NCBI GenBank assembly: GCA_944391505.1
Contig: CALXTV010000005.1
Span: forward strand, 5,033-69,032
DNA length: 64,000 nt
Origin: an uncultured Alphaproteobacteria bacterium
Lineage (GTDB): Bacteria; Pseudomonadota; Alphaproteobacteria; RF32; CAG-239
Direction of reading: 5' to 3'
The notes beneath the pieces are model-generated. The model was given only the letters and a program-made list of their open reading frames with translations, made no database searches and was not told the origin of the DNA. Shown here piece after piece: positions 3,813-55,212 of this stretch. Made by a program: the position numbers and the translations under genes. The stretch's first letter is position 1. Every line of letters starts with the position of its first letter.

Positions 3813-4019
3813 TAGTTAAACTCTTCATAATTGTATTTAGCCAAAAACAAAGAGCCTCTCATTATATTTTGACTTATTATGAGAAGTAAGTTAACATATA
3901 TTTGATAGGTGTGATGTGAACAGCAATTGGCAGGTCTTATATCTGCTCTTTGCCGAAGTTTCTGCGCACCTCCGCCTTCGCAGGCGCCGTCCCTTATATT
4001 AACTTGTCCGAGGTGTGCC

Positions 4020-6323
4020 ATGGCTCGTGTTCATCTGTTCTTTTCTATCGTTTTGGCCAGCGGTGCTTTTTTTGCCGCGGCCGATGTTTCGGAGGCTGAA
4101 CAAAGCCTGCCGCTTACCTTGTCGGTTAATACACACACAAATACATTATCCACACCCCTGACGGCGTCTGCGTCTCTTTTTGCCGATTTGAAAAATTCTT
4201 ATCAGACTGTCGGCGTTTGCTTTATCGGTTTTGGCGATTGTATGGAAGATGCCGGTTTTGGCAGGGGCGGTGATGATTATTCGCTGGATACGGCCTCTCA
4301 ATGCAAAAACGAGGGATATGTTCTCAACAACTGCAATTCCGTTCAATCCCCCAAAGATTATTGCCCGTATAACAAGTCTTATGTTTCCGGATGTAAATGT
4401 GCGTCTAACCTTATAACCTGTCCGGCAGGGCAAGTCGGTGTGGGTGATGCCTGCGAGGGAAAGTACGCTTCCTGCAAATGCGACCCTAATCTTATAAGCT
4501 GCGCTTCCAACCAGACCGGACAGGGGGCAAGTTGCGGCGGCAAATATCAGTCCTGCGTCTGCAAGTCGGAATATCAATATAATTCATCAAACTGTACATC
4601 GCCGCGTTCGCTGACCGGTGCCAGCTGCGGCGGCAAGTATACGGGCTGCTCGTGTCCGGGAGGGATAACCAGTCTGCCTTACGGATGCGAGGAATATTAT
4701 GCGTCGCCCTGCAATTCCGTCTGTAAGAAAGCTTATGTGGACAACTGCAGGAATCGTACGGCGGTCAGTACACCGTACGGCTGCCAGACTTATTGGTCTG
4801 ACTGTTCTTCCAAATGTCAGAAGGCTTACCCGGACAACTGCCGGAATCGTACGGCCGCAACTTGTGCTTTTGGCTGTCAGACTTATTGGAGCGATTGTCA
4901 GTCGAAGTGCCAGACCTGCAAGACCGATAACTGTGCCAACCGAACCGCCGTTAATGCGCCATACGGTTGCCAGACTTATTGGTCAGACTGTGCTTCCAAG
5001 TGTCAGACGGCCTATGCCGACAACTGCCACAACCGTACGGCGGTCAGTACACCGTACGGCTGTCAGACTTATTGGTCTGATTGTACTTCCAAATGCCAGA
5101 CGGCTTATGCAGACAACTGTCGGAATCGTTATGTCAATAATGAGCAACAGGTGGCAATTTTCGGCTGTGCTAAGTATTTCGACGATTGTCCGACCAAATG
5201 TCAAATGCCTAATCCGACAAGCTGTACCTATGCCGCGCGAACGGCTCATCCGGAGGCCATTGTGGTCGGGACGAATGAAGAGCTCAGGACTGCGGCGGTT
5301 TCCGGAGAGAAAATTTACCTGAGCAGTGATTTAGATATATATACAAATTTTGAAATTAAAAACGGTACGGCAATCCATTCGGCCTATGAACTGGCGCCGA
5401 AATATTGTCTGGAAAAAGGATGGGGCGGTATATGGAATATTTATGAAGGAACCAAGATTAATGTTCCTTTATATAGTGCCGGGTTAGATGTTATGGGAAG
5501 TTTCAGTTTTTCAAAAGATATTAAGTTAAATTCTTTGTATTTTGGTGCACCGCCTTTGGGAATATCCGAAGAAACCGAAATTAGCATTACTTCTGAAAAT
5601 GATGCCAAAATTCAAAGTTATAACTTAGGTGGTTCGCTTGAGATTTTGAATGATTCGTTGAAGTCGATTTTTATTGATAATCTTGTCTGGGTCTCGACTT
5701 TGCGGCTTGATTTTATTTCAAACGAAGATCTGACGGTGACTGTGAGAAAATCTGGAGAATTTGATTCTCTTAATTTGAGTGGGGGACCGGGAAAGTTTGT
5801 TCTGGAAGACGGAACGTTTAATATTAGGGGTAATATGATTATTAACTCTATTCAGCCTCCTTATTTAGGCGACGGTATCGAAGTTTTGTTTAAAAATGCC
5901 AATGTTAATTTGCGTGACCTTGAGATGCAGTCAAATTCGGAAATCGTGCTGGATAATTCCACTGTTGATGCGAATAATAGCTTGGGAACTTATTTGGATT
6001 ATTCTAACCTTTTCTATGACAACTCTGTGCCGACGGGAGCAATCCGCTTTAAGAACGGCAGTAAATGGCTTAATATGTCCCATATTAGCATACACGACCT
6101 TTACGGCGGTGGATATGGCGTGGAGTTTGTTTTTGAACCGAACAGCCATTCTTATATTGAGACGTACAAAGGGTTTGGCACTTGTCAATACGGAAAGATA
6201 TCCGCTCAAGATCCGACGCAGGAAGCAAAATTGCAAAGTTACGGCGCTGCTACGACGGAGCTATGTTTCATACCTGATTATTATAATAATTATACCAAGC
6301 AAATTAATATAAAAGTAGAATAA
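4020..6323 (+). CDS. secreted cysteine-rich repeat protein (767 aa) with a Cys-free beta-rich C-terminal domain
   Basis: The in-frame ATG at 4020 begins a signal peptide, MARVHLFFSIVLASGAFFAAADVS. Residues 110-240 carry about 23-aa C.C..NLI.C...Q.G.G..C.GKY.SC repeats. Residues 240-400 carry five repeats of about 30 aa, NCRNRTAVSTPYGCQTYWSDCxSKCQxAY. The ~375-aa C-terminus is cysteine-free. I recognise no homolog by eye. Confidence 0.75.
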   Translation: MARVHLFFSIVLASGAFFAAADVSEAEQSLPLTLSVNTHTNTLSTPLTASASLFADLKNSYQTVGVCFIGFGDCMEDAGFGRGGDDYSLDTASQCKNEGYVLNNCNSVQSPKDYCPYNKSYVSGCKCASNLITCPAGQVGVGDACEGKYASCKCDPNLISCASNQTGQGASCGGKYQSCVCKSEYQYNSSNCTSPRSLTGASCGGKYTGCSCPGGITSLPYGCEEYYASPCNSVCKKAYVDNCRNRTAVSTPYGCQTYWSDCSSKCQKAYPDNCRNRTAATCAFGCQTYWSDCQSKCQTCKTDNCANRTAVNAPYGCQTYWSDCASKCQTAYADNCHNRTAVSTPYGCQTYWSDCTSKCQTAYADNCRNRYVNNEQQVAIFGCAKYFDDCPTKCQMPNPTSCTYAARTAHPEAIVVGTNEELRTAAVSGEKIYLSSDLDIYTNFEIKNGTAIHSAYELAPKYCLEKGWGGIWNIYEGTKINVPLYSAGLDVMGSFSFSKDIKLNSLYFGAPPLGISEETEISITSENDAKIQSYNLGGSLEILNDSLKSIFIDNLVWVSTLRLDFISNEDLTVTVRKSGEFDSLNLSGGPGKFVLEDGTFNIRGNMIINSIQPPYLGDGIEVLFKNANVNLRDLEMQSNSEIVLDNSTVDANNSLGTYLDYSNLFYDNSVPTGAIRFKNGSKWLNMSHISIHDLYGGGYGVEFVFEPNSHSYIETYKGFGTCQYGKISAQDPTQEAKLQSYGAATTELCFIPDYYNNYTKQINIKVE
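4731..5200 (+). repeat. intragenic tandem DNA repeat (about 90-bp unit, 5 copies) encoding the Cys-rich module
   Basis: Near-identical copies of gcttatg..gacaactgc.gaatcgtacggc...ccgtacggctgccagacttattggtctgactgt...aaatgtcaga. Confidence 0.8.
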
Positions 6324-6368: not shown

Positions 6369-8351
6369 CTACAGGTTTTTCATGGCCAGTCGTTCAAGTT
6401 CTTTGAGCTTGTCGCGATAGACGACGGCCGTTTCAAACTCAAGATTGGCGGCGGCTTCTTTCATCAGTTTGGTATATTCTTTGATTTTTTTCTCAACGTT
6501 TTTGATTTCTTCAATATCTTTGGTGTCGTCTTTGACAAAGTCGGTTTCGGTCATTTCTTTTAGGGTGGCCGAAATGCTTTTTTTGATGGTTTTCGGGGTA
6601 ATGCCGTGTTCGGCATTGTATTTCATCTGTTTTTCGCGGCGGCGGCGCGTTTCGTCGAGCGCCTGTTTGATGGAGCCGGTTATTTTGTCGGCGTACAGAA
6701 TGACTTTGCCTTCGGCGTTGCGGGCCGCACGACCGATTGTCTGAATCAGCGAGCGGGTCGAACGCAGAAAGCCTTCCTTGTCGGCGTCAAGAATGGCCAC
6801 CAACGAACATTCCGGAATATCCAGGCCTTCGCGCAAAAGGTTGATGCCGACCAGCACGTCGAAAACGCCGAGGCGTAAATCTCTGATGATTTCAATACGC
6901 TCGAGCGTGTCAATGTCGGAGTGCAGATAGCGGACTTTTATGCCGTTGTCGTTTAAATATTCGGTCAGGTCTTCGGCCATTTTCTTGGTCAGTGTCGTTA
7001 CCAGAATACGTTCGCCTTTGGCGACAACCTTGCGGCATTCTTCCATGAGGTCGTCAATCTGGTTTTCTACCGGGCGCACAACACATACCGGGTCGGCCAG
7101 CCCGGTCGGGCGGATGACCTGTTCGACAAAGGTGCCGCCGCTTTGCTCAAGCTCCCAGTCGCCGGGGGTGGCGGAAACGAAAATTGTCTGGCCGCGCATG
7201 GCATTCCATTCGTCAAATTTGAGCGGGCGGTTGTCGACGCAGGACGGCAGGCGGAAACCATAAGCGGCCAAAGTCGATTTGCGGTTATAGTCGCCGCGGA
7301 ACATTCCACCGATTTGCGGTATGGAAATATGGCTCTCGTCAATGAAAATGATGGCGTTCGGCGGCAGATATTCAAACAGGGTCGGCGGCGGCGCACCGGC
7401 CGGACGTCCGGTTAGGTAGCGCGAGTAGTTTTCAATGCCTTTGCAATGTCCGGTCGCTTCAAGCATTTCAAGATCAAACCGGGTGCGTTGTTCCAGCCGT
7501 TGTGCTTCCAGCAGTTTGTTTTGACTTTTAAATTCCTCAAGGCGCTCTTTTAATTCTTTTTTGATGCCGACAATAGCCTGAGACAGAGCCGGGCGCGGCG
7601 TGACGTAGTGATTGGCCGGATAAACCGTGACTTCTTTCAGATCAACGGTTTTTTTGCCGGTCAGGGAATCGAACTCGCAGATGCTTTCAATCTCATCGCC
7701 GAAAAAGGAAATGCGCCAGGCACGGTCTTCGTAATGTGCCGGAAAAATATCCAGTATGTCGCCCTGAACCCGGAAGGTGCTGCGGACAAAATTCTGCTGA
7801 TTGCGCTCGTATTGCAGTTCGGCCAGGCGGCGGCAGACTTCCCGCGGGGCAATTTCATCGCCGACTTTTAGCGGAATGGTCATTTGCGAATAGGATTCAA
7901 CGTCGCCCAAGCCGTAAATGCAGGAAACCGAGGCAATGATAATGACGTCTTTGCTTTCCAGAATGTCACGGGTGGCCGCGTTGCGCATGCGGTCGATTTG
8001 TTCGTTGATGGCCGAATCTTTTTCAATATAGGTGTCGGTTTTGGGAACATAGGCTTCCGGCTGGTAATAGTCATAGTAGGAAACGAAATATTCGACATGG
8101 TTGTTCGGAAAAAATTCTTTCATTTCCGAGTAAAGCTGGGCCGCCAGAATTTTGTTCGGTGCCATAATCAGGGCGGGGCGCTTGCTTTGTTCAATGATTT
8201 TGGCCATGGTAAAGGTTTTGCCGCTGCCGGTAACCCCGAGCAGAACCTGATTTTTTTCGCCGTTTGCGATGCCTTCGCAGAGCTCCTTGATGGCTTCCGG
8301 CTGATCGCCCGCGGGAGCAAAGGGACTTTCAATTTTGAAATCACTGCTCAT
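6369..8351 (-). CDS. uvrB: excinuclease ABC subunit B
   Basis: [29 protein letters not shown]...; helicase motifs. The start was chosen at MSSDFK (8351). The ORF track extends to 8450, but that N-terminal extension is implausible. Confidence 0.95.
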
Positions 8352-10950
8352 TGTTTTTTGGGCCGTTGTTTTCCGTGTCTTCGTCCAAGTCGGCGAGCCG
8401 CAGCGAATCCGTATAGATTTTGGTAAAGTTGCTGAAAGCGGCAACGTCATTGACCATGCGGTCTATTGAGTTAAGGTCTATTTTATCGTCTTCAAGGCGT
8501 CCGGTCAGGATATTGAAGACGCTGTGATATTTTGTGTCTTTGAAGTAAGGCATGAAAGTATTGCGCAAACGTACGATAACGGTTTCTTTGCCGGATTTTT
8601 TCAAAGCTGTGGCCCAGTCGAGAATATAGTTAATCTGTTCTTCACTCAATGGCTGGCCGGGTGTCGGCTTTTCGACCAGATATTTGAGGTTGTCTGATGC
8701 GGGGCCCCATAATCCGGCGTTCCAGAATATTTCGCTTTTTAAGAGAATGGCGTTTTTGCTGTAGTCGTCTTTCAGCAGTTTGAGCGCTTCTTCCTGACGA
8801 TTGAGCGCGGTAAGCGCTTTGGCGCGGATGATTTTGCGCTGCAACGCCAAAGTCTGCGGAATGGCATCGCTTTGGGTATCGTCGAGCATAAGCAAAGTTT
8901 CGCCTTCTTTGTGGTTGAACAGATATATCAGAGCCAGGCGGGTGCCGATTTTTGCACGGTCAAGCGGTGTCATCGGAACGGTGCGCAACTGATTGGTCAG
9001 CAGGCTTTCGGCACGGTCAAGCAAATCAACGGCTACCAGCCGGTCGCTTAATTTCAGAATTATGGTGTTATATTGCGGGCTTTTAGGTGCCAGCCATTCA
9101 TAATCGTGGTACAAAGCCAGTGATTTCAGAGCCGGCAGATTGTCGGCTTCGTTATGAATATAGATGTTTTCAAACAAACGAACCATTCTGTCTTCAACGG
9201 CCGGTTTGTCTTCATAATCGGCATAGTTTTTCAGCTCCTGAAGCGTGCGGAGGGCATTGGCAAAATCTTTTTGACGGGCGTACATATCGGCCAGACCGTC
9301 AAGCAGGCTTAATTTGAAAGTTCTTTCACCCCAGGCATAGCGCAGGCGTTCAAACTCGCTGATAGCGTTGTCCAGCGGAAACAGATTTAATTTTAAGCCA
9401 AGCTCGACGATTTCTTTACGCGCCAATGAAGTATACTTAAGCGAATCGAGCGGCAATATCCGTCGGTATTCGTTAATTGCACTCATCGGCGATCCCTGCA
9501 ACACCAGCTTTTTTCCGGTCAGGTAGTGAACGGCGGGCACGAGGCGTCCCGGGTGACGGCTGTTTTTCAGAATATCAATAAAATTCTGCGTGGAGAGGTC
9601 GTCGCCGGCATTGAGCGCAACCTGGGCACCGACCAGAGCAATACGGTCTTTGATTTCGTCCGGATAGTCGCGAATAAGGGAGATGAAAGAAAGCAGAATA
9701 CCGCCATATTCATCTTTGTATTCAATTGCCGCTTCAGACAGAGTTCGCCAGAAAACGGCTTCGTTGTTTGTCGACAGGTGCCCGTATGAAAAGTCTTCGA
9801 CGGCCTGTTCGTAACGATTGGCCAGAAAGTTGGCTATACCGGAAAGTCCGTACAGGCGCTCGGATTGTGCCTCCGGTGCGCCGGAGGCTTTTATCTGGTT
9901 GATGATGCTCAGCGCATTTGTTCCCAATCCCCGCATGACATAGTATTTGGCAAGTTCCAGCCGGGTTTTATTTTTTTGTTCTTCCGGTGCGGCGGCAATG
10001 TCATCGCGTAACTGCTGTTCTGCTTCAATAAACGGTCGGCTCATCAGTTCGGCACTGATTGTTCCGGTCAGCGGAGAAAGCTCGTTTTCGTCCTGACCAA
10101 GCATGGCTTGACGTTTGAGGTAGTCGAGGTTATGGGATATGTTCAGACCCCGGTTGTATCCCTGAATCGAGATTCCGGTTGTTGCCCGGCTGACGACGAT
10201 GTCGTTAGTTTTGGATATGATGACAATCCCCTGATAAGATGCGAGAATATCCAAATCAGGATAAGTGTAGGGATGTTCAATTCCGACGCCGATGTCCAAA
10301 CTTGGGGCTGCGATGATGGTGTCGCCGATTTCCGGATCAAGCGTTGAGATGACGTTGCCTGTATTGGAAACCGGAACAAAGAGATATGGCTGTTTGCGGC
10401 TGTTGTATTGTGTGAAAGCCTGAAGGTAGCGGTGTTCTTCGTCAGGAAACGGCCTTTTCAGAATGTCGACGACCCAGAGCAAGCCTTCTTTACGAACGGT
10501 GTAATAAGTTCCTTCTTTGGGTTTTAGACGTAAAATAAGACCTTGATAATTCGGTATTTGTATCAGTTCATCAACCAGCGGTGCAGCGTTGGCTGCCAGC
10601 GCTTCGATATCAATGTTTTGCGAGTGGTCGAAAACAATCCACAGATAATCGCCGCGGTGGAAAACAGCCAAACCGACAGGAATGTTCCAGGGAAAGCTCA
10701 AGCTGACGCTTTGTTTTTCGTTGTTTTCCTGCGTCATTTGCGGCACCGCCATTTCGCTGCTGCTTGATCTTTTGGCTGTACTGCGGGTCTCAATCGGACG
10801 GATTTGTGCCGTGGAAACAGGTTCGACAGCCGCAGCGCTTCCAATGACCGAGGCAGGCGACGGCACAGGGAAAAAACAGGCAAAAACCAGCGTACAGAGT
10901 GCCATACGCCGGCCGACATTTTTTAATATATTTCTTGTCTTATTGCTCAA
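8341..10950 (-). CDS. large secreted TPR-like repeat protein, flagellar-cluster associated
   Basis: 869-aa ORF with a signal-like N-terminus and helical-repeat-rich (TPR-like) middle and C-terminal regions. Its last 11 bp overlap the uvrB start. Confidence 0.55.
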
Positions 10951-10968
10951 AACCTTTTTCCGTTGCCG

Positions 10969-11622
10969 TTAAATGCTGTTTCCGATAATCTCGTCCGTTA
11001 CGGCTTTTGCTTTTGCCGCTTCCATTTGGGAAACAATGGCTGATGCCGCGGACGGTTTCATTTCTCTCAACAGGTAGGCTGCCGTTTCGATGTCCAGCGT
11101 GTTGAATATTCTGGCAGCGCTTTGCGGTTTCATGCTGGTGTACATCTTGACCAGCGCGGCCATTTTTTCTTTTTCTTTTTCGTTGTATTCGTTAATGAGT
11201 TTCTTCAGTTTACTTTCATATTCGCGGAGCTGAACCAGCTTTTTTTCAATTTCCTCTTCAGCGACTTTTAGCTGGACGGCTTTCTTGTCAATCTCTCGGC
11301 TTCTCAGATCAAGAGCTTCGCGACGCTCGGCGAGTTCCTGCAAAATCATTATTTCGGACTGAGTAAAAGTACTGTTATTTTTTTCTCCGCTTCCTGCCGG
11401 GGTTTGTCCGCGTTCAGCCTGTTCCAAAACTTTGCTTAATTCCGCGGTTTCCTGTGAGGCTTTTTCTTCGGCCCAGGCGTGGCTTTGACCAAGATGAAAA
11501 CGGCTGTCATCGGCATTTTTCAGCGAATCAAAAACATTATTGACACGAATGGACAGTGTCAGAACGGCCAGAAAGATGAAGACGGGCAGAATGCGAAAAT
11601 GATTTTTTATTTTTGTCAGCAT
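10969..11622 (-). CDS. MotE-like flagellar protein (membrane anchor, coiled coil, MgtE-N-like C-terminus)
   Basis: N-terminal TM helix, a long charged coiled coil, and the C-terminal sequence LVKMYTSMKPQSAARIFNTLDIETAAYLLREM, which resembles MotE/MgtE_N. It sits downstream of fliL-fliM as in alphaproteobacterial flagellar clusters. Confidence 0.45.
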   Translation of the reverse strand: MLTKIKNHFRILPVFIFLAVLTLSIRVNNVFDSLKNADDSRFHLGQSHAWAEEKASQETAELSKVLEQAERGQTPAGSGEKNNSTFTQSEIMILQELAERREALDLRSREIDKKAVQLKVAEEEIEKKLVQLREYESKLKKLINEYNEKEKEKMAALVKMYTSMKPQSAARIFNTLDIETAAYLLREMKPSAASAIVSQMEAAKAKAVTDEIIGNSI

Positions 11623-11631
11623 TGAACTTCC

Positions 11632-12111
11632 TTATTTTATCGAACGAAGTGCTTTTAAAAGCTCCATTTCGGCTTCAGAGCGCGAATCCGAAACACCGAA
11701 AGTTTCAGATTCTTTGTCTTTGCGGAACGGCATTGCGGATTTTGTATTTCCGAAACGTTCTCCGGTATTTTTTTCGTCTTTAATGGTACGTCCGTCTTTT
11801 ATCATAATTTCCAAACGGTCGGCCAGATTATCCGCCCTTTCGTTAATGAAAGTCAAATCATCTTTCAGGGTTTTGGCATTGTCGACGATTTCTTTGAGGC
11901 CTTCCGACGAATGTTCGGTAACCGATTTGAGTTTGGGAATTGAATTTTCGGCTTTAAATGTTGCTTCGTTAAGTGACTGTACCAGTTGTGACAGACTTTT
12001 CTGGTTTTGACGCAGAATGTTTAAATTCCGATTGAGCCGGTATGCAAAGACAATGGTCGGAATCAAAAGCCCGATAATGGTCAAGTTGATGATTAGTTCA
12101 AAGCTATCCAT
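11632..12111 (-). CDS. membrane-anchored coiled-coil hypothetical protein in the flagellar operon
   Basis: 159 aa with an N-terminal TM helix (LIINLTIIGLLIPTIVFAY). It overlaps the fliM stop by 8 bp. Confidence 0.45.
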   Translation of the reverse strand: MDSFELIINLTIIGLLIPTIVFAYRLNRNLNILRQNQKSLSQLVQSLNEATFKAENSIPKLKSVTEHSSEGLKEIVDNAKTLKDDLTFINERADNLADRLEIMIKDGRTIKDEKNTGERFGNTKSAMPFRKDKESETFGVSDSRSEAEMELLKALRSIK

Positions 12112-13195
12112 TGCGTTCTGCCTTATCTTTTACTTTAATAACAACGTGTTCAGCTTTGCGTCCCATGCAGCCCTTAAGCAGGGGAACGTCGCCGCAGATG
12201 AGTGTGACGTCATCGGTGCAGGACATTTCCAAAGGCAGAAAAGAACCCTTTTCCCATTTGGCAATTTCGCCCAGACTAATCAGACGCTCTTTGAGAATGG
12301 CCTTGATTTCGACATCGGTTTCCCACAACTGTTCCATCAGGTGATTTTCCCAGATGGTGTCCCGTCCGTAGCGTTCGCCCATAAACATCTGAAGCAGAAG
12401 GTCACGAACCGGTTCCAGTGTTGCATAGGGAATCATCAGGTCGATTTTTCCACCGCGGTCTTCCATGTCTATGCGCAGGTGGGCGACGATGACAGCGTTG
12501 GAAAGCCGGGTTATGGTTGCAAAACGCGGATTGGTTTCCAGACGGTCATAAGAAAAGTTGACGGAAGTTATCGGGTCAAAAGATGTTGAAAGATCGGAGA
12601 GAATCAGCTCAATCATGTCTTTGACGAGGTTTAATTCAATCGTGGTGTAGGGTCTTCCTTCAATGCGCATGGCGGCTGTGCCGCGGCGTCCGCCGAGCAG
12701 AACGTCGACGATGGAATAAACCAGAGAAGAATCTACGGACATCAGACCGAAATTGTCCCATTCTTCGGCTTTGAAAACGGCCAACAGGGTCGGCAGAGTC
12801 AGGGAATCGATATATTCGCCGAAGCGCATGGATTCAATATTGTCGAGAGAAACTTCAACGTTGTCCTGTGTAAAATTGCGGAGTGATGTGGCCATCATGC
12901 GAATCAGGCGGTCAAACACAATGTCGAGCATGGGCAGACGCTCGTAAGAAACCATGGAGGCATTTAAAATGGCGCGGACGCCGGTTTTCATCTCATAGTT
13001 TTCTTCATCATCATCCGGCGTGTATCCGAACAGGGAATCAATTTCTTCCTGATTGAGAATTTTTGAATCGCCGGCATCTCCCGCTGGTGCTGCCGTTTCG
13101 CCGTCATCGCGGATTTTTATGGCATCGGCCCAGTTTTGGTCTTCCTTGCGGGCGGCGTCTTGTTCCTGATTATTTGTTTGATTTTCCTCTGCCAC
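12104..13195 (-). CDS. fliM: flagellar motor switch protein FliM
   Basis: LNQEEIDSLFG motif and the FliM middle domain; 363 aa. Confidence 0.85.
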   Translation of the reverse strand: MAEENQTNNQEQDAARKEDQNWADAIKIRDDGETAAPAGDAGDSKILNQEEIDSLFGYTPDDDEENYEMKTGVRAILNASMVSYERLPMLDIVFDRLIRMMATSLRNFTQDNVEVSLDNIESMRFGEYIDSLTLPTLLAVFKAEEWDNFGLMSVDSSLVYSIVDVLLGGRRGTAAMRIEGRPYTTIELNLVKDMIELILSDLSTSFDPITSVNFSYDRLETNPRFATITRLSNAVIVAHLRIDMEDRGGKIDLMIPYATLEPVRDLLLQMFMGERYGRDTIWENHLMEQLWETDVEIKAILKERLISLGEIAKWEKGSFLPLEMSCTDDVTLICGDVPLLKGCMGRKAEHVVIKVKDKAERNG

Positions 13196-13216: not shown

Positions 13217-13744
13217 TTATTTATCAATTCCGAAAGCTTTGAAGTTAAGGTTGGATACCACAACCGGGCTGACAATCAGGTTGATGCGGTACAGCAGTTC
13301 TTCCTTGAGCCAATAAAGACCGTTGGAACCGCTGATTTCATCCGGTGTCAGTTCAATTGTATGCGCAATGACCGCGTCGACGATTTTGGGCATGAGCCCT
13401 TCGACAATCTGAACGTCTTCGACCCTGGTCAGTTCAAGATTGAGACGAAAACTGACATCCTGCGGTGTGCCGGCAGCATCTTTGATGCGGACGTTAATTT
13501 CGGGAATATCGTAGAGTATTGTAAGTTTGTTTTCTGCGTTTTCGCCTTCGGCCGGACGTTCGACAACGGCGTAAGAAAGACTCTGCGGCCCGGTTTTTTT
13601 ACTGAAAACAGAGTAAAAGCTTACAACCAGCCCGATTGCAATCAGTGCCGGCAGCAGAAAAACAAGTATTTTTTTGCGGTCGATTTTCTTTTTGCCGTCT
13701 TCGACATCCGAATCCGCATCAAAATCATCGTCCAAATTTGCCAT
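13217..13744 (-). CDS. fliL: flagellar basal body-associated protein FliL
   Basis: 175 aa with a single TM helix (ILVFLLPALIAIGLVV), a periplasmic domain, and a position upstream of fliM. Confidence 0.8.
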   Translation of the reverse strand: MANLDDDFDADSDVEDGKKKIDRKKILVFLLPALIAIGLVVSFYSVFSKKTGPQSLSYAVVERPAEGENAENKLTILYDIPEINVRIKDAAGTPQDVSFRLNLELTRVEDVQIVEGLMPKIVDAVIAHTIELTPDEISGSNGLYWLKEELLYRINLIVSPVVVSNLNFKAFGIDK

Positions 13745-14019
13745 AACCCAACCTTAACAATAGATTTTCCTATTCGGCATTTTATAATATTTTTTTTAGA
13801 AAGAAACCCTAAAAACATACTTATTAAACGGATTTGTCATTTTAACCATTATTTCAGGATTTTCGATGTATAAAACAGACAGAAAAGTTCTTTTGAAGCT
13901 TGGTGCCGCCGATTGTTACAGATATGTTAATTTTGAGGAAAATTAAAGCTTTGACATGGAAAAAAAGGCGTGTTTATGGTAAGATAGACAAGAGTTGAAT
14001 AAGACGAGGCATAAGTGTA

Positions 14020-14790
14020 ATGTACATATGGGTTCTGCTGGCGACATTTATAGCAATTTTGTATTCGTTTAATCTGCCGACGCGTTCAGATATGCGCGAA
14101 ATTTATGTCGAACCACAAGCGGAGGCGATTGTCAGCAAAATGCTTTTGCAACATCGGGCGGCTGAAAATTATGCCAGGGATCTTGGTTATACGTCTTATT
14201 ATCCCGGAGAAGTCGATTTTGATCTGCTGTGTCGGATGAATTATCTTCCGTACGGTCTGGAAGGATGTAACCCTGCCGATACCAGCAAAATCGAGCGCAG
14301 GCAGGAAATTCATTCGCGGATATATTGTCTGGACGAAAGTTCGTCCGGTTATTCCAAATCGGTAACCGGCTGTCCGGGGAGCCCGAGCTGCTGTAGCAAA
14401 GATAATTCTTACAATTATGTCGTGACTTACGGCTGTGTGCCGCAGCGGTGGCGGAATATTAAGACCGGCAAGCCCAACAATGACCTGCTGAACGCAATAA
14501 AAAACACAGTCGGCGTCGGTGTTAATATCGGATATGCCGATTTTGAAGACAAAACGTTTACGCGGGTTTATGACGAGGCTGACAACAAGACCGTGCAGGA
14601 CAAATATACGATGCATCTGGTCGGACGGGAAATTGAATGGATCGGTATTCCCGAGTATGTGGTTAACGATACGGAAGGCGGCAGCGAATCTTTCAACCGG
14701 ATGTGCGTCGAACCTCTGAGGGACGACGAAGGAAATGTGGTTGAGCAACAGGGCTGTTCCTATTGTATGGTTTATATCACGCCGATTTAG
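14020..14790 (+). CDS. hypothetical membrane-anchored Cys-containing protein (256 aa)
   Basis: N-terminal TM helix (MYIWVLLATFIAILYSF) and 12 cysteines. It lies 7 bp upstream of the giant pilin-like gene and is probably co-transcribed with it. Confidence 0.5.
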   Translation: MYIWVLLATFIAILYSFNLPTRSDMREIYVEPQAEAIVSKMLLQHRAAENYARDLGYTSYYPGEVDFDLLCRMNYLPYGLEGCNPADTSKIERRQEIHSRIYCLDESSSGYSKSVTGCPGSPSCCSKDNSYNYVVTYGCVPQRWRNIKTGKPNNDLLNAIKNTVGVGVNIGYADFEDKTFTRVYDEADNKTVQDKYTMHLVGREIEWIGIPEYVVNDTEGGSESFNRMCVEPLRDDEGNVVEQQGCSYCMVYITPI

Positions 14791-14796
14791 GCGGAG

Positions 14797-17700
14797 ATGA
14801 GGAGAAAAATGATGTCGAAAAGCAGATTTGCAAAGCTGAATGAGCTGGGAAGCCTGATGGTCGAGGCGATGGCTATGCTTGCCCTCATTTCCATGGTTAC
14901 GCCGATTTTGTACCGGAAAGCTGCCGAAAGAACGACTGAATTGCAAGATATTAATGCGGCCGGACAGATGCGTAGCCTGATTAAGGCAGTAGACGATTAT
15001 GTCCGCGATAATTATAATGCCATTGTTGCCGGCGAGCGGGTTGAAAACAGTGCCAACAACTCGGTTAATTACAGCGATTTGGTCAGCGGTGGCAAAAAGA
15101 CGATTAACATTACGCATTTCCGCGACTATCTGCCTTACGGTTTTTTGGATTCTTCCGGAAATGTACAGGATACAAAGACTTTCAGCAAGGATTATAAGGT
15201 TGCGTTCAAATATACCGATGCGGGAGGGCGCAAGGCCGTAACCGCTTTTGTTGTGGCAGAACCAAAAGAAAAAGATGATTTTCCGATGCTGCGGGCATCG
15301 CGTATTGCGTCCATGGTCGGCACAAACGGCGGTTATGCTCAGGTCAGCGGAGGAAAGGTTACAGTTAACGGTGTGCAGGGTATTTGGACGATTGACAATA
15401 TGAACAATGAACTGGGAATTACGACGACCAACGGTTCAATCGTTACCTCTTCCGTTCAGCCCATTACGGAGGCCGGAGGTGGCGGCAACAACGAAAATTA
15501 TCTGTATCGTATAGATATGAGTGGCAACCCGTCAACGGCCAAGCTGAATCAGATGGAGGCAAATCTGAAACTCGGGGCGGACAACGGAACGCATCATAAC
15601 ATCACTAACGTCAACCAACTGATTATTTCGGCACAGAATCAGGCCAATTTTTCGGATAAAAGCAGCGGGAATGACGGTGCTTTGCTGATTGAAGGTACCG
15701 GCGGTGCTACAATCGGCGGCAATACGATTATCGGTGGAAGTTCGACGATTACGGGGACGTTGTCGGCGCTGGCTGATAAGTTCAGGGTTAATGAGGCCGG
15801 TCTGCAATATGGTGATTTGTTTACAGTTACCGAAACCAACCTGAAATACGGCAATAACGGCGACGTTATCAACGCCAGCAGTTCCAATCTGAATTTGCTG
15901 AACGGAAAAATTACGGTTGATGCGAACGATACAAAGATTGCCAACAAGACGACGATTGGAACGACTGGGACAGCAACGACTTCCGACTATCAGATGCTGG
16001 TCAAGGGCAATGCTGAAGTAACCGGAATATTGACGGCGGGAGAAGTTCGTACGCCTAAATTTAAATCCCTTACTTTGGATGCCGGTGCGACGACGTACAA
16101 CGGCCCTTGGAACTTGCATGTTGAATCGACAAAAGCCAGTTTGGCACAACCGGATTTCAACGTGGCGACGGATAAGTTGAAAATTACTTCTGCGGAATCG
16201 AGCATGAGAAATGCGACGGTTACGCTGAATGCAAATGACGTGGCTTCCGTTGTCCTTAATACAAGCGGTGCCGAAATCAGTTCGACGAATAACGTTAAGA
16301 TGCACGGCAATAATAGTGTTCATTTGTATACGGGGACAATGTCGCCTACATTGACAGCCGGCGAAGTTAGTATTCAGGATTCAATGTTCCGAGCAAACCG
16401 CAATACGGTTGCGATTAACTCCATCGTCAACAGCTTTACGGTCAGAAACACGGTCGGAGACAAGCTGGATCAGGCCGATATTGCCAATGCGGTAAGCCGG
16501 GTTCGCAATATGACTTTTCAGGCTGAAAATCCGGACGGTACCTCTGTCTTTTCAGTTAACCCGAAAACGGCCGGTTCGGAAACAATAAGTGCCAATGTGC
16601 GCACGGTTGACGTGCGTTCTGCCGGGTTGGTCATTGATTCATCGGACGGAAACACCAATCGCAGCGTTAATGCCAAGAACGGCGGCACGGCGACAACGCA
16701 GGCTTATACTTACATCGGCAAAGGCAGAATCGATGTTAAAGATAACGCCGCCAATAAGATTTTTGTCGTTGATGCCAGAGATGTAGACAAGTCTACGGCT
16801 AACCGCGGCAGCGTTTATGTCCGCAAAGGTGTTCTTGAGCTGGAATCCGGCTATGCTTCCAAATTGACCGATGCACAGGTTCAGGCGCAGGCAACTTCTA
16901 CGGCTAATGACAAGGGCTATGTGCGGGCGGACCGTTTCGTCTCCAACCGCAGTTGGACGAATCCTATACAGAGCGGTGTTCCGTCCGGGTTTAACCGTGG
17001 GGTTGTCTATGATGCATATCAGGTTAATCCGGCTTATACGTCGGTTATGCACGATATAAAACTGACCTCCAGAGGTGGAGCTCGTTTAAGTGACATTCTG
17101 CCGGATTTCATTAACAAAGGTATTTATGTGGTTGACAATACTTATCTGGAAACTTTTGGCAGCTGGGAAAATTCTTCGGGTTGTCCGAACCATACCAGCG
17201 GTAACAGCTGTCAGACGGTGGCTAACGGCTATGTGGCCAACAACCATACCGACTGGACGTCGCCGTGGTTGGGTGTGGTTCCGGCGCCGATGTGTCCGCC
17301 TGGATATGCCAAGGTTATTACGATTACACCGGCCGGTTTCGCCATGGCTCAAGCCGGTATTCCGGGAACCAGACAGCCCGGCAGAAAGCAGGATATCGTG
17401 ATTGTGAACTATCCGAAGAATCCGAATGAGGATTATTCAGCCAATCCGTCCGCAGCGCCAGTGCCGCTTTATTTCCAAAAGAGTACCTGGTTGCGTGCCA
17501 AGGTCTATACGCATGGCTCGGACAATACGTTTAAGGGTTGGAGTGCTATCATGGGCTTTATGTATCCTTACACGTACTATAAACAGTATATGGATGATTT
17601 GGGTTTGGGACTGAGCGGCAGTGACGCCATTGCCTGGAATCTGTTTCCGGTTTTCAGAAAGCAGTTGGAAGCTTATGCTACGGTTTATTGTTACTTTGAC

Positions 17701-17874
17701 CGCAAGGGTGGTTTGGGAACGATATTTAACTCGGATTTGGTAGATACAACTTATGATCAGTTGTCGAATTTCCGGGCGCCGATGAGCGGAAAAACACCAA
17801 GTGCAACAGGAAATGACAACGGTTACTTTAACCGTCTGAACGATCCGAATCTTAAATATACGGAACCGTGGTAA
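14797..17874 (+). CDS. giant (1025 aa) Asn/Thr/Gly-rich surface protein with a TadE/pseudopilin-like N-terminal segment
   Basis: The N-terminus, MMSKSRFAKLNELG|SLMVEAMAMLALISMVTPIL, has a Gly followed by a hydrophobic helix with Glu at +5. This matches the TadE-like/type IV pilin class-III signal pattern. The body has low complexity, with about 30% N/T/G/S. Confidence 0.55.
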   Translation: MRRKMMSKSRFAKLNELGSLMVEAMAMLALISMVTPILYRKAAERTTELQDINAAGQMRSLIKAVDDYVRDNYNAIVAGERVENSANNSVNYSDLVSGGKKTINITHFRDYLPYGFLDSSGNVQDTKTFSKDYKVAFKYTDAGGRKAVTAFVVAEPKEKDDFPMLRASRIASMVGTNGGYAQVSGGKVTVNGVQGIWTIDNMNNELGITTTNGSIVTSSVQPITEAGGGGNNENYLYRIDMSGNPSTAKLNQMEANLKLGADNGTHHNITNVNQLIISAQNQANFSDKSSGNDGALLIEGTGGATIGGNTIIGGSSTITGTLSALADKFRVNEAGLQYGDLFTVTETNLKYGNNGDVINASSSNLNLLNGKITVDANDTKIANKTTIGTTGTATTSDYQMLVKGNAEVTGILTAGEVRTPKFKSLTLDAGATTYNGPWNLHVESTKASLAQPDFNVATDKLKITSAESSMRNATVTLNANDVASVVLNTSGAEISSTNNVKMHGNNSVHLYTGTMSPTLTAGEVSIQDSMFRANRNTVAINSIVNSFTVRNTVGDKLDQADIANAVSRVRNMTFQAENPDGTSVFSVNPKTAGSETISANVRTVDVRSAGLVIDSSDGNTNRSVNAKNGGTATTQAYTYIGKGRIDVKDNAANKIFVVDARDVDKSTANRGSVYVRKGVLELESGYASKLTDAQVQAQATSTANDKGYVRADRFVSNRSWTNPIQSGVPSGFNRGVVYDAYQVNPAYTSVMHDIKLTSRGGARLSDILPDFINKGIYVVDNTYLETFGSWENSSGCPNHTSGNSCQTVANGYVANNHTDWTSPWLGVVPAPMCPPGYAKVITITPAGFAMAQAGIPGTRQPGRKQDIVIVNYPKNPNEDYSANPSAAPVPLYFQKSTWLRAKVYTHGSDNTFKGWSAIMGFMYPYTYYKQYMDDLGLGLSGSDAIAWNLFPVFRKQLEAYATVYCYFDRKGGLGTIFNSDLVDTTYDQLSNFRAPMSGKTPSATGNDNGYFNRLNDPNLKYTEPW

Positions 17875-17896
17875 TATGGTTTTGAAAACTGCAAGC

Positions 17897-17930
17897 CCCG
17901 GAAAAACGGGGCTTTTTTTTGTAAAATGGG
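17897..17930 (+). terminator. intrinsic terminator (GCCCCGGAAAAACGGGGC + T8)
   Basis: Perfect hairpin followed by T8, lying after the stop of the 1025-aa gene. Confidence 0.6.
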
Positions 17931-18013: not shown

Positions 18014-18751
18014 ATGAAATTCGCAGCGCTGTTGATGATGGGGGTTTCGCTTGGATTGACATTTCCTGCAATGGCTCAGAATGCCAGATATGGCGTGCAG
18101 TCTTTTCAGCAAAAAAGTACTTCCTTGCGTCAGACGGAAGAAGACAATCTGCCGCCGGTTATCAGCCAAAGTATGATTGACTCCATCGGCAGCAGCGGAA
18201 TTGCCAATATTACCGATGCCGAGGCCGTTTTTTGTTATCAGGTTGCTTCCAAGCCGGCCGGTTATAAAGGATATACGATTAACAACGTTGCGGTTTCCGG
18301 TTTTTGCGGAATTATTGAGGACAACCTCAAAAACATGATTGTCCGGCAGTTTTTTGCTACGCCGGAAAATATTTCTTCCGATGTGGCGCAGTGTGTTATT
18401 AAGCCGCGGTTGATGCTGCGTTTTGTCCGCGGCGTGGATTATACGGATGTTTTGCTTTCGTCTCCCTGTCATTCTTTTTCTGTTTTTTACGGCGGCAAAG
18501 TGCGTTCTTATAACTTTAGTCCGGCGGCGGAGATTATTGATGTCATGGTTGAGTCTTTCCGTCCGAAGACCATTCCGTTTGTGTCTCCGGCAATGCTGCG
18601 ACAGTTGCTGCCGATTGGCGTTGCACAGACGCCGGCTCAAAAAGAAATGGTGGCCAAGCAAAGCGGCCCCGTTCGCAACTGGGAAACTCAATCTGCTCCA
18701 GCCAAACCTGCTGTCCAGAAAAAAGGCGGGTGGAATAATTTGAACCTTTAA
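18014..18751 (+). CDS. secreted hypothetical protein (245 aa)
   Basis: Clear Sec signal peptide (MKFAALLMMGVSLGLTFPAMAQ). No family recognised. Confidence 0.5.
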   Translation: MKFAALLMMGVSLGLTFPAMAQNARYGVQSFQQKSTSLRQTEEDNLPPVISQSMIDSIGSSGIANITDAEAVFCYQVASKPAGYKGYTINNVAVSGFCGIIEDNLKNMIVRQFFATPENISSDVAQCVIKPRLMLRFVRGVDYTDVLLSSPCHSFSVFYGGKVRSYNFSPAAEIIDVMVESFRPKTIPFVSPAMLRQLLPIGVAQTPAQKEMVAKQSGPVRNWETQSAPAKPAVQKKGGWNNLNL

Positions 18752-54243: not shown

Positions 54244-55212
54244 TTATTGTCTGGGAATATCTGTTGTTTTTTCTTTATTCAAATTATCTGTTTTATTTAT
54301 TATGTCTTTTAACGAGGGAGAAGCCCGAAGCCCTATAACTTCATTATAGCGTACACCATATTTATTTCGAATAGTTGTATCAGCCCCTGCTTTTATTAAC
54401 AATTTTACAGCTTCCTTATTGTTTGCCATTTCAGCAATAAATAATGGTGTATTTCCATCAAAATCAGGACTATTTATATCTGCACCTTTTGAGATTAAGT
54501 AATGAATTGGTTCAATGGTTAATTCGGAAGGAATTTCTACAGCATGATGTAAAGCTGTGCGTCCTCTAAGGGTATCTTTTTTGTTAATATCCGCACCATT
54601 TTCTACAAGAAGTTTCAACATATCCATAAGATATGGCACTGTCGTTTTTCTTACTTCCAGAAAAGCGTTATGCATTGTTGCTTTAACCGCAGATATTTCA
54701 TCTTTTGTAATATCTTTACAAGGCTTAGAAATAAGGTTAGGAATATTACAATATCCATTTTTTTGTAATTCTATATCAATTGCTTGATTCGATAATTCCT
54801 CATATCCTTGTAATTCTAAGGGCATAGCTAATACAACAACTAATGGAAATCTGGCGTTTCTCTGGCAAATTTCTTGATTAACGTCAGCTCCTTGAGCAAT
54901 TAAATATTTAATTTTTTCAATAGAATACTTTAAAGCATCTTGCCTCTGTTCTTGGATCCCCAAGATACTTCTAATAGCTAAAGTTAAAGGAGTGTTACAT
55001 TCATACATGGCATTTGCATCGGCTTGACTACGAATTAAGGCCTTCACATCATCAGGAGAACCAAATAAAATAGCAGACTGAATTTTGTCAGCAGTATGTG
55101 CTGTTTGTAATTCTACCGGAGGATTGGAAATTGATACTGATTGCTGTGCATTTATATTTGTCGATAAGCACAACATAACAACTGCTGATGCTAAGAGTTT
55201 TCTTGTATTCAT
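54244..55212 (-). CDS. secreted ankyrin-repeat protein
   Basis: Signal peptide and at least six ANK repeats (e.g. GRTALHHAVE, DGNTPLFIAEMANNKEAVKLLIKAGAD). The gene is markedly AT-rich compared with its flanks. Confidence 0.85.
   Translation of the reverse strand: MNTRKLLASAVVMLCLSTNINAQQSVSISNPPVELQTAHTADKIQSAILFGSPDDVKALIRSQADANAMYECNTPLTLAIRSILGIQEQRQDALKYSIEKIKYLIAQGADVNQEICQRNARFPLVVVLAMPLELQGYEELSNQAIDIELQKNGYCNIPNLISKPCKDITKDEISAVKATMHNAFLEVRKTTVPYLMDMLKLLVENGADINKKDTLRGRTALHHAVEIPSELTIEPIHYLISKGADINSPDFDGNTPLFIAEMANNKEAVKLLIKAGADTTIRNKYGVRYNEVIGLRASPSLKDIINKTDNLNKEKTTDIPRQ

Follow-up and report, generated by a model that had tools for sequence, protein, structure and literature searches.

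A candidate giant minor prepilin of the PilV class and its PilM-like partner, encoded by a two-gene operon in uncultured Alphaproteobacteria

In a 64-kb stretch of DNA from an uncultured alphaproteobacterium (contig CALXTV010000005.1; the whole stretch of 64,000 nt is termed the window) two adjacent genes lie divergent from fliL and fliM, and the second contains an open reading frame (ORF) of 1025 aa that opens in the manner of a pilin. Type IV pilins are normally 10–20 kDa. The locus raises the question of whether the large protein is a pilin at all and, if it is, to which class it belongs and how it might be used together with its neighbour. The best explanation is that the two genes encode components of the R64/IncI-type branch of type IVb pili. 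With moderate confidence gene 2 is read as encoding a giant modular minor prepilin of the PilV class, placed at the tip of a type IV filament, with the product of gene 1 as a PilM-like partner. The original prediction, made from the sequence alone, had proposed a giant pilin-like adhesin or fibre subunit; this is the best-supported reading, and the body is indeed far larger than that of known pilins. Coordinates are those of the window (Table 1), and residue numbers of the large protein are those of the 1025-aa ORF.

The prepilin signal and the domains of the large protein

The N-terminus of the large protein contains a predicted class III signal, in which the leader, the glycine at −1, the glutamate at +5 and about 20 hydrophobic residues are all present. 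The leader is basic and 13–14 aa in length, and the mature protein would start S-L-M-V-E-AMAMLALISMVTPILY, Glu+5 being followed by the hydrophobic α1 helix. The N-terminus had been read correctly in the original prediction, and its prepilin-type signal is conserved. Neither Gly−1 (G18) nor Glu+5 (E23) varies in alignments of 24 and of 82 homologs (~37–85% identity), and the α1 segment has a mean identity of 76%. A strict motif was defined as a leader of ≤30 residues, Gly, one small or hydrophobic residue, any three residues, Glu and 14 more, with the 17 flanking residues required to be uncharged and mostly hydrophobic. Applied to all ORFs of ≥45 aa in six frames of the window, using every possible start, it matches gene 2 only. 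In 1.77 Mb of related DNA 83 of its 94 matches belong to this family, and neither the window nor the flanks of related loci yielded another prepilin-like ORF with it.

The same N-terminus had been taken to match the prepilin/TadE pattern. Read from the sequence, it resembles the TadE-type pattern (G/SLMVEAMAML compared with G/xxxVEFA, the slash marking the cleavage site), and Tad loci are common in Alphaproteobacteria. At E ≤ 10 neither TadE (PF07811) nor N_methyl (PF07963) matches the first 70 aa or the full protein; N_methyl of NCBIfam has no match at E ≤ 1, nor has TadE at full length at E ≤ 1, and TadE is also absent from eight homologs. The N_methyl and TadE models are uninformative here, since PilV, a genuine type IVb pilin used as a control, fails both. 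The assignment to the TadE/TadF/TadG family does not hold up, the globular domain being a homolog of PilV and Shufflon_N, and all of the positive homology that was found is to these and to type IVb pilins. It is accordingly considered unlikely that the protein is a pseudopilin of the TadE/TadF/TadG type, or a giant one that serves a Tad (Flp) or type II secretion system whose genes lie elsewhere.

The evidence for PilV comes from the family. Neither of the two proteins of the window has a match in Pfam, NCBIfam or PHROGs; the large one has none among PDB sequences (phmmer), and searches of the PDB sequences with the profiles of both families gave nothing. Shufflon_N (PF04917), which models the constant region of PilV, the adhesin of the R64 thin pilus, matches homologs at residues ~116–376, corresponding to profile positions 54–277, and hence the globular part and not the helix. 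The best homologs score 46.9 and 43.4 bits against a cut-off of 27.5, and several others score 26.4–28.7 bits; at E ≤ 0.01 three of 24 family members are matched, and the window protein itself is not. A Salmonella plasmid supplied a reference PilV and the complete IncI pil operon. On alignment of the family with this PilV by hhalign, aa 57–277 correspond to PilV 44–226 (91% probability, E = 1e-6), the alignment taking in GGY..G and the motif LYR..G.P.LN.M.T...MG..N..NV. Using tblastn, PilV matches the N-terminal part of 12 family loci (E = 1e-6 to 3e-3). The homology of the family to PilV is therefore supported at the level of sequence, while formal Pfam membership of the window sequence is not.

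The large protein was modelled with AlphaFold (AF2) from 82 sequences, with a mean predicted local distance difference test score (pLDDT) of 66. Residues 50–220 are modelled as a long helix and a β-sheet at a pLDDT of about 88–90. The predicted fold of the globular domain is a pilin fold, and its best structural matches are type IVb. Taking alignments and model together, the N-terminal ~280 residues are predicted to be a PilV-class type IVb minor pilin domain. It is very improbable that the protein is no pilin, but a Sec-dependent, signal-anchored surface or periplasmic adhesin with an N-terminus that is prepilin-like by chance. The lack of a direct Pfam, NCBIfam or PDB-sequence match for the window protein would agree with such an origin. 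It is opposed by the invariance of Gly−1 and Glu+5 over 82 sequences, the specificity of the motif for this family in the 1.77 Mb of lineage DNA, the extension of the PilV homology of the globular domain well beyond the helix, and the predicted pilin fold with its type IVb matches.

From the pilin domain the chain passes through a Gly/Asn-rich linker into a stalk and a head (Table 1). The linker is 51–99 aa in homologs, with a mean identity to the window of 44%, and is modelled with low confidence; L236, R238 and M253 are invariant within it. The stalk is 310–591 aa in homologs (28% mean identity to the window) and is modelled as many short, regular β-strands at a pLDDT of 60–75. Some homologs have borderline Pfam matches to Bactofilin or LbH (left-handed β-helix) in this region. 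The head is better conserved (58% mean identity to the window; 300–378 aa in homologs), and its residues 775–990 are modelled as β-rich with a pLDDT of 80–88. The most conserved stretch of the protein, aa 734–777, hardly varies across 82 sequences; it has many His, Asp, Lys and Arg residues and is modelled at a pLDDT below 50. Its fold may depend on a partner or on oligomerisation, and the stretch may serve in oligomerisation, in binding a partner or as a site of processing.

The cysteine-containing C-terminal region noted at the outset is confirmed, as all four cysteines of the large protein (796, 805, 833 and 965) lie in its C-terminal third. C833 and C965 are invariant, and invariant cysteine pairs fit a periplasmic or extracellular protein. 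The composition (N 9.3, T 9.3, A 9.0, G 9.0, S 8.3 and V 7.7%) agrees with the description as enriched in Asn, Thr, Gly, Ser and Val; the further description as low-complexity is not truly apt. There is a single C-terminus. The genes called in six loci, out to 10 kb, include no recombinase, inverted sfx-type repeats not having been specifically searched for.

A search of the PDB with the full model using Foldseek gave nothing at E ≤ 1e-3. The top matches, all non-significant (best E 0.011, TM-score <0.1), are trimeric phage fibres (T4 gp34, the R2 pyocin spike and the Bd2133 fibre), as might be expected of a domesticated prophage or phage-tail-like fibre protein. The matches carry no weight, and such a derivation is scarcely credible. 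There is no PHROG match, neither plasmid records, 50,697 phage records (tblastn) nor IMG/VR contain a match to the C-terminal head, no phage genes lie near the pair, the housekeeping synteny is conserved and the GC content is unremarkable.

The partner, the peptidase and the proposed role

The product of gene 1 had been described as a membrane-anchored, Cys-rich partner of 256 aa, in agreement with its N-terminal hydrophobic helix and cysteine content (Table 1). Members of its family always begin MY(I/V)W and run straight into the hydrophobic helix, with neither a leader nor Gly−1; position 5 is almost always Val, and Met in one member. The AlphaFold model (pLDDT 78.5, predicted template modelling score 0.75) has a kinked N-terminal helix (residues 2–16 and 23–54) on a β-sheet. 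From model and sequence, the partner has a PilM-type fold and a leaderless N-terminal membrane helix, and IncI PilM likewise starts with a membrane helix (MGWLVMAVGLTILII). A motif YLPYGF is common to the partner and the large protein. An alignment of the partner with the pilin domain of the large protein by hhalign (52% probability, E = 1.4e-4) covers the end of α1 and YLPYGF, and is suggestive only. Among 39 members of the partner family there is no Pfam match, including to PilM (PF07419). The likeness to R64-type PilM, as judged from the model, is one of fold and topology and not demonstrated membership.

The original prediction had made the pilin assignment hinge on a prepilin peptidase in the genome. 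No A24 peptidase was found in the 64-kb window, but the lineage does encode A24 prepilin peptidases, and for the lineage the prediction is not refuted on this ground. The most divergent locus (L085) has one (Pfam, 60.3 bits) 3 kb from the pair on the same contig. An ortholog (P0243) is located on JAISVX010000001, within the same metagenome-assembled genome (MAG) as the pair on JAISVX010000005 (L027). The orthologs of this peptidase (714 matches of 228–248 aa, named prepilin peptidase in alphaproteobacterial MAGs) keep both catalytic Asp motifs, E(I/V)DKR..LLPD and GGGDIKL. The enzyme is short (228–238 aa) and has no methyltransferase domain, as in TadV/CpaA, which is a further point on the side of a Tad pseudopilin. 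Set against this, it also matches IncI PilU (tblastn, E = 2e-4), and the partner resembles R64-type PilM and not a Tad component. When the whole IncI pil operon (PilL–PilV) was compared by tblastn with the window and ~90 loci, only PilV and PilU gave matches.

The family of the large protein is extensive. It has at least 364 relatives at 90% clustering (8,000 candidates scored), and at 50% clustering 1,276 clusters at E ≤ 1e-3 and 318 at E ≤ 1e-30; the best 150 of the listed clusters are nearly all full-length (830–1,470 aa). When one genome of each GTDB species was scanned, 297 species proved to be carriers. All 78 loci listed are from uncultured gut, rumen or faecal alphaproteobacterial MAGs, and the closest among the loci listed is from Candidatus Scatocola faecigallinarum (81% identity). 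A literature search on the RF32/Scatocola lineage and pili gave nothing useful. The pair is also carried by two MAGs labelled 'Lactobacillaceae bacterium' (L027, JAISVX010000005.1) and 'Bacteroidaceae bacterium' (L085, CAVIDY010000002.1). Much of the flanking gene order in L027 is the usual one (uvrB, the TPR gene and PHO4/PhoU/DsbA), and the taxonomic labels of the two bins are probably wrong.

The pairing is strict. Of 86 loci, 83 have the partner gene directly ahead of gene 2, and the remaining three are truncated where the contig ends; together with the terminator after gene 2 this substantiates the two-gene module first proposed. Where fliL is not adjacent only the pair itself is conserved, and the unit is therefore taken to be the two genes. 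The flagellar neighbourhood stressed earlier is frequent, with fliL/fliM adjoining the pair in 53 of the 86 loci, but not constant: about 30 of the 86 loci, roughly a third, have lost it, whereas the promoter box has stayed with the pair. The context is one of chromosomal housekeeping synteny and not an R64-type pil operon on a plasmid or integrative and conjugative element.

As a giant PilV-class minor prepilin, the product of gene 2 would be inserted in the inner membrane. An A24 peptidase encoded elsewhere would remove the 13-aa basic leader after the invariant Gly, giving a mature protein with Ser+1, Glu+5 and the hydrophobic α1. Its PilV-like pilin domain would carry the length-variable β-rich stalk and the conserved, disulfide-bonded head of ~320 aa. 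The prepilin would dock by α1 and Glu5 at the start of a filament, prime or cap it, and so end at the tip. The tip location is proposed because the bulky C-terminal modules and head could not pack within the filament body, and the head would be presented there as a binding module. The product of gene 1, closest to R64-type PilM, may join the pilin domain in the membrane, as its partner in assembly or at the tip. By analogy we infer cleavage and incorporation into a filament, and any oligomeric state or ligand of the head would be predicted in the same way. The tip and initiator role draws on the biology of PilV, TcpB and CofB as given in two reports (PMC5207764; PMC9045228).

Several observations weigh against this assignment. 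In the window no assembly ATPase (T2SSE-type), platform protein (T2SSF-type), secretin or major pilin was found. No pilus machinery is present within 10 kb of the pair in 86 loci, whole genomes not having been searched, and none beside the A24 peptidase in eight loci, in which the latter lies among housekeeping genes (groESL, HSP90, enolase and PPDK) and never beside pilus genes. All members of the family are from uncultured organisms. A conserved head on a variable stalk is the reverse of the logic of the PilV shufflon. Lastly, the partner aligns with IncI PilM by hhalign with a probability of only 0.5%, so that its likeness is structural only.

The lack of assembly genes near the pair, near the peptidase and in the window would equally be found if the pilus machine had been lost or had never been present. 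The three genes would then be the remainder of a type IVb system, and the processed protein would stay anchored by α1 in the inner membrane, where it could form an envelope-spanning or periplasmic fibre with the PilM-like partner, possibly with the flagellar basal body. This use without a filament is possible, though we are doubtful of it. It agrees with the position of the pair and peptidase as core genes in housekeeping contexts and not in an island, with the divergence of the pair from fliL/fliM in 53 of 86 loci, and with the strong conservation of the head, which suggests a conserved, perhaps endogenous, partner. The loss of the fliL/fliM adjacency in about a third of loci, with the pair and promoter box persisting, argues otherwise. 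Moreover the invariant Glu+5 is a filament-docking residue (PMC5207764) and would be unneeded for a mere membrane anchor, the range of stalk length (310–591 aa) is ill-suited to a fixed periplasmic span, and pil genes are commonly dispersed, so their absence nearby is weak evidence. In a more specific form, which is tentative and rather improbable, the lineage keeps three dispersed type IVb core genes (PilM-like, giant PilV-like prepilin and orphan A24 peptidase) with no machinery, and the processed giant pilin acts free of any filament. It might, for instance, span the envelope as a fibre anchored in the membrane, with a conserved head of a fold not seen before, and perhaps work next to the flagellar motor. 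If this is true, the type IV pilin scaffold would have been put to a new use.

The operon, its promoter region and the surrounding genes

The two genes form a self-contained operon with an upstream box, an extended −10 promoter, a Shine–Dalgarno sequence and a terminator (Table 1). Both ORFs are present as first described, and the divergent orientation of fliL and fliM is borne out by Pfam and NCBIfam. Gene 2 probably starts at ATG 14809 or 14812, with 14812 favoured (product 1,020–1,021 aa), because AGGAG sits 4–7 nt before these positions and homologs begin at the corresponding Met. Some 20 nt lie between the stop of gene 1 and this start. A strong terminator separates gene 2 from the next gene (18014) and closes the operon.

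Table 1. Positions of the operon, its elements and other features of the window
Feature	Coordinates	Strand	Description
Operator-like box	13914–13934	+	TGTTACAGATATGTTAATTTT (family consensus TGTTACARAWWTRTKAANNTT); 21 nt; ~105 nt upstream of gene 1 ATG
Sigma-70-type promoter candidate	13951–13956; 13977–13985	+	TTGACA; extended −10 TGGTAAGAT; consensus scan 10/12
Gene 1	14020–14790	+	256 aa; PilM-like, leaderless protein of predicted pilin fold; N-terminal membrane helix MYIWVLLATFIAILY; Cys-rich globular domain (10 Cys, 4 invariant)
Gene 1 stop codon	14788–14790	+	
Gene 2 (large protein)	14797–17874	+	1025-aa ORF
Shine–Dalgarno sequence of gene 2	14800–14804	+	AGGAG, read from sequence; 4 nt ahead of ATG 14809, 7 nt ahead of ATG 14812
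Class III (prepilin) leader, predicted	14812–14850	+	MSKSRFAKLNELG; ends in invariant Gly (codon 14848–14850); start inferred from homolog alignments
Mature N-terminus, α1 helix and PilV-like globular pilin domain	14851–15471	+	aa 19–225
Glu+5 codon	14863–14865	+	
Gly/Asn-rich linker	15472–15696	+	aa 226–300; motif LYR..G.P.LN.ME..L..G....NI.NVNQ; aligns to PilV in hhalign
β-rich stalk	15697–16896	+	aa 301–700; hypervariable; Thr/Ala/Asn/Val/Ser/Gly-rich; no Cys
C-terminal head	16897–17874 (including stop)	+	aa 701–1025; stretch NPAYTSVMHDIKLT.RGG.RLSDI.PDF; invariant Cys pair C833 (CPPGY), C965 (YCYF)
Most conserved stretch of head	16996–17127	+	aa 734–777
Intrinsic terminator	17893–17924 (hairpin 17893–17914)	+	AAGCCCCG-GAAAAA-CGGGGCTT and T-run; by scan 8 pairs, 6 G-C, then TTTTTTGT
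fliL	13217–13744	−	
fliM	12104–13195	−	
Block downstream of fliM	8341–12111	−	DUF6468 protein, 217-aa MgtE_N-like protein, 869-aa TPR protein; then uvrB
uvrB	6369–8450		Intact
Gene for secreted protein	18014–18751	+	245 aa; Sec signal peptide (…FPAMA/Q); four invariant Cys
ORFs of first low-GC patch	26918–29712	+	425 and 495 aa
Ankyrin-repeat protein, second low-GC patch	54244–55212	−	
Large ORF	3927–6323	+	798 aa
Large ORF	1259–2365	−	368 aa

Of 81 related loci, 60 have the 21-nt box in the same position; among them are 26 of the 30 that lack fliL as a neighbour. It is present as a single copy in the window, and in 1.82 Mb of lineage DNA it occurs 62 times, 59 of them at the promoter of this pair. 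Because the box stays at the promoter of the pair, also where fliL is not the neighbour, the pair has its own conserved regulatory region. The extended −10 element (TGnTAnnnT) is conserved across diverse loci, including distant relatives. The box resembles a CtrA box with one mismatch, yet GTTAC is invariant where CtrA would need TTAA; with this and no second copy in the window, a canonical CtrA box was judged by inspection to be a poor fit. Nor does a sigma-28 promoter fit the sequence of the intergenic region on inspection.

A NarL/FixJ-type response regulator (Response_reg and GerE, 209 aa) is encoded directly upstream of the A24 peptidase in four loci (L089 9306–10702, L092 7296–8702, L093 5309–6699 and L094 5307–6702), and an ortholog with 54% identity is directly upstream of the pair in L049 (8296–13228). 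The regulator is a possible link between the control of the peptidase and that of the pair. The 21-nt box is absent upstream of the peptidase and of the neighbouring regulator, barring one relaxed-pattern match on the reverse strand (regulator, L089 only).

Around the pair the window contains housekeeping and flagellar genes only. The next gene downstream encodes a secreted protein of 245 aa without a family match. It is found in 54 of 86 loci, sometimes at another position or on the other strand, and was rejected as a member of the module; a terminator lies between, and the gene moves independently elsewhere. On the other side, the block of genes for DUF6468, MgtE_N-like and TPR proteins is found with fliL/fliM in 51 loci, and its products may be flagellar accessory proteins specific to the lineage; the TPR protein has a weak SctY-chaperone-like match. 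A disruption of uvrB suggested by an ORF filter was ruled out, the gene being intact. Two low-GC patches (28–30 kb, GC 0.38; 54–56 kb, GC 0.36) could be acquired DNA. The two ORFs of the first have no Pfam or NCBIfam match, nor have the large ORFs of 798 and 368 aa near the start of the window, the former of which is also present in the closest related contigs (L001 and L002).

Comparison with known systems

The closest known counterpart of the large protein is PilV, the minor pilin and tip adhesin of the R64/IncI1 thin pilus, together with PilV2. The family shares with these a class III signal in which +1 is a residue other than Phe and +5 is Glu. It has in common with PilV the homologous globular domain with its LYR..G.P.LN.M.T...MG..N..NV motif, and an overall logic in which a pilin domain is followed by a Gly/Asn-rich β region and then a C-terminal binding part. 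It differs from PilV in being more than twice the size (920–1,470 aa compared with about 430–475 aa) with a stalk of 310–591 aa, and in falling, for the window protein, below the threshold of PF04917. The C-terminus is conserved and not shuffled, with no Rci recombinase within 10 kb in the called genes of six loci, and the gene is a chromosomal core gene of the whole lineage, outside any conjugative element or pil operon.

R64-type PilM (PF07419; PDB 3eoi and 3hg9), which is not the actin-like PilM of type IVa systems, is poorly defined in function. Like it, the partner starts with a hydrophobic helix and no leader, and its gene adjoins a PilV-type gene, as in some PilM systems; unlike it, the partner is ~100 aa longer and Cys-rich, and there is no sequence similarity. 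Adjacent pilV2 and pilM2 genes are found in PAPI-1 (pilL2...T2-V2-M2) and in Burkholderia Tfp7 (pilV2-M2-S2...) (PMC3984277), so that a PilM-type neighbour is shared with the PilV2 systems. These pil operons lack a peptidase of their own, which is encoded elsewhere (PMC3984277, PMC5297154).

TcpB of Vibrio cholerae and CofB of enterotoxigenic Escherichia coli are large type IVb minor pilins, proposed as tip and initiator subunits (PMC5207764). The large protein resembles them in having a pilin domain followed by regions modelled as β-rich, and in Glu5. It has no detectable sequence similarity to either, and both are encoded inside their own pilus operons. TadE, TadF and TadG of the Tad (Flp) pili also have a short leader, Gly−1, Glu+5 and a hydrophobic helix, and are processed by a short A24 peptidase without a methyltransferase domain; the family differs from them in its lack of a PF07811 match, its PilV-like globular domain and the absence of tad genes among those seen.

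A further comparison is with modular type IV pilins such as PilB and PilC of Streptococcus sanguinis, the added modules of the present family differing in that they match no known domain. The largest modular pilin in a published survey has 860 aa (PMC8179133), an extreme exceeded by this family at 920–1,470 residues. The family would be missed by that survey because it has no IPR012902/N_methyl signature, and all of its members are labelled hypothetical.

The identification would give annotation to two families that lack a Pfam entry, and would carry the R64-type PilV/PilM module beyond the conjugative elements from which it is known, to a chromosomal core gene. It also points to an unannotated and probably surface-exposed protein whose head of ~320 aa is a candidate host- or glycan-binding module. 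Should the genomes turn out to be without pilus machinery, a pilin would have been co-opted for a filament-independent role. The idea of modular pilins is already known, as are PilV, TcpB and CofB as large minor pilins, and no new category is created. The family is distinct in being about twice the size of PilV and beyond the 860-aa extreme of the survey, in escaping the standard pilin signatures, in a head without detectable relatives, and in its status as a chromosomal core gene across 297 species, detached from pilus operons.

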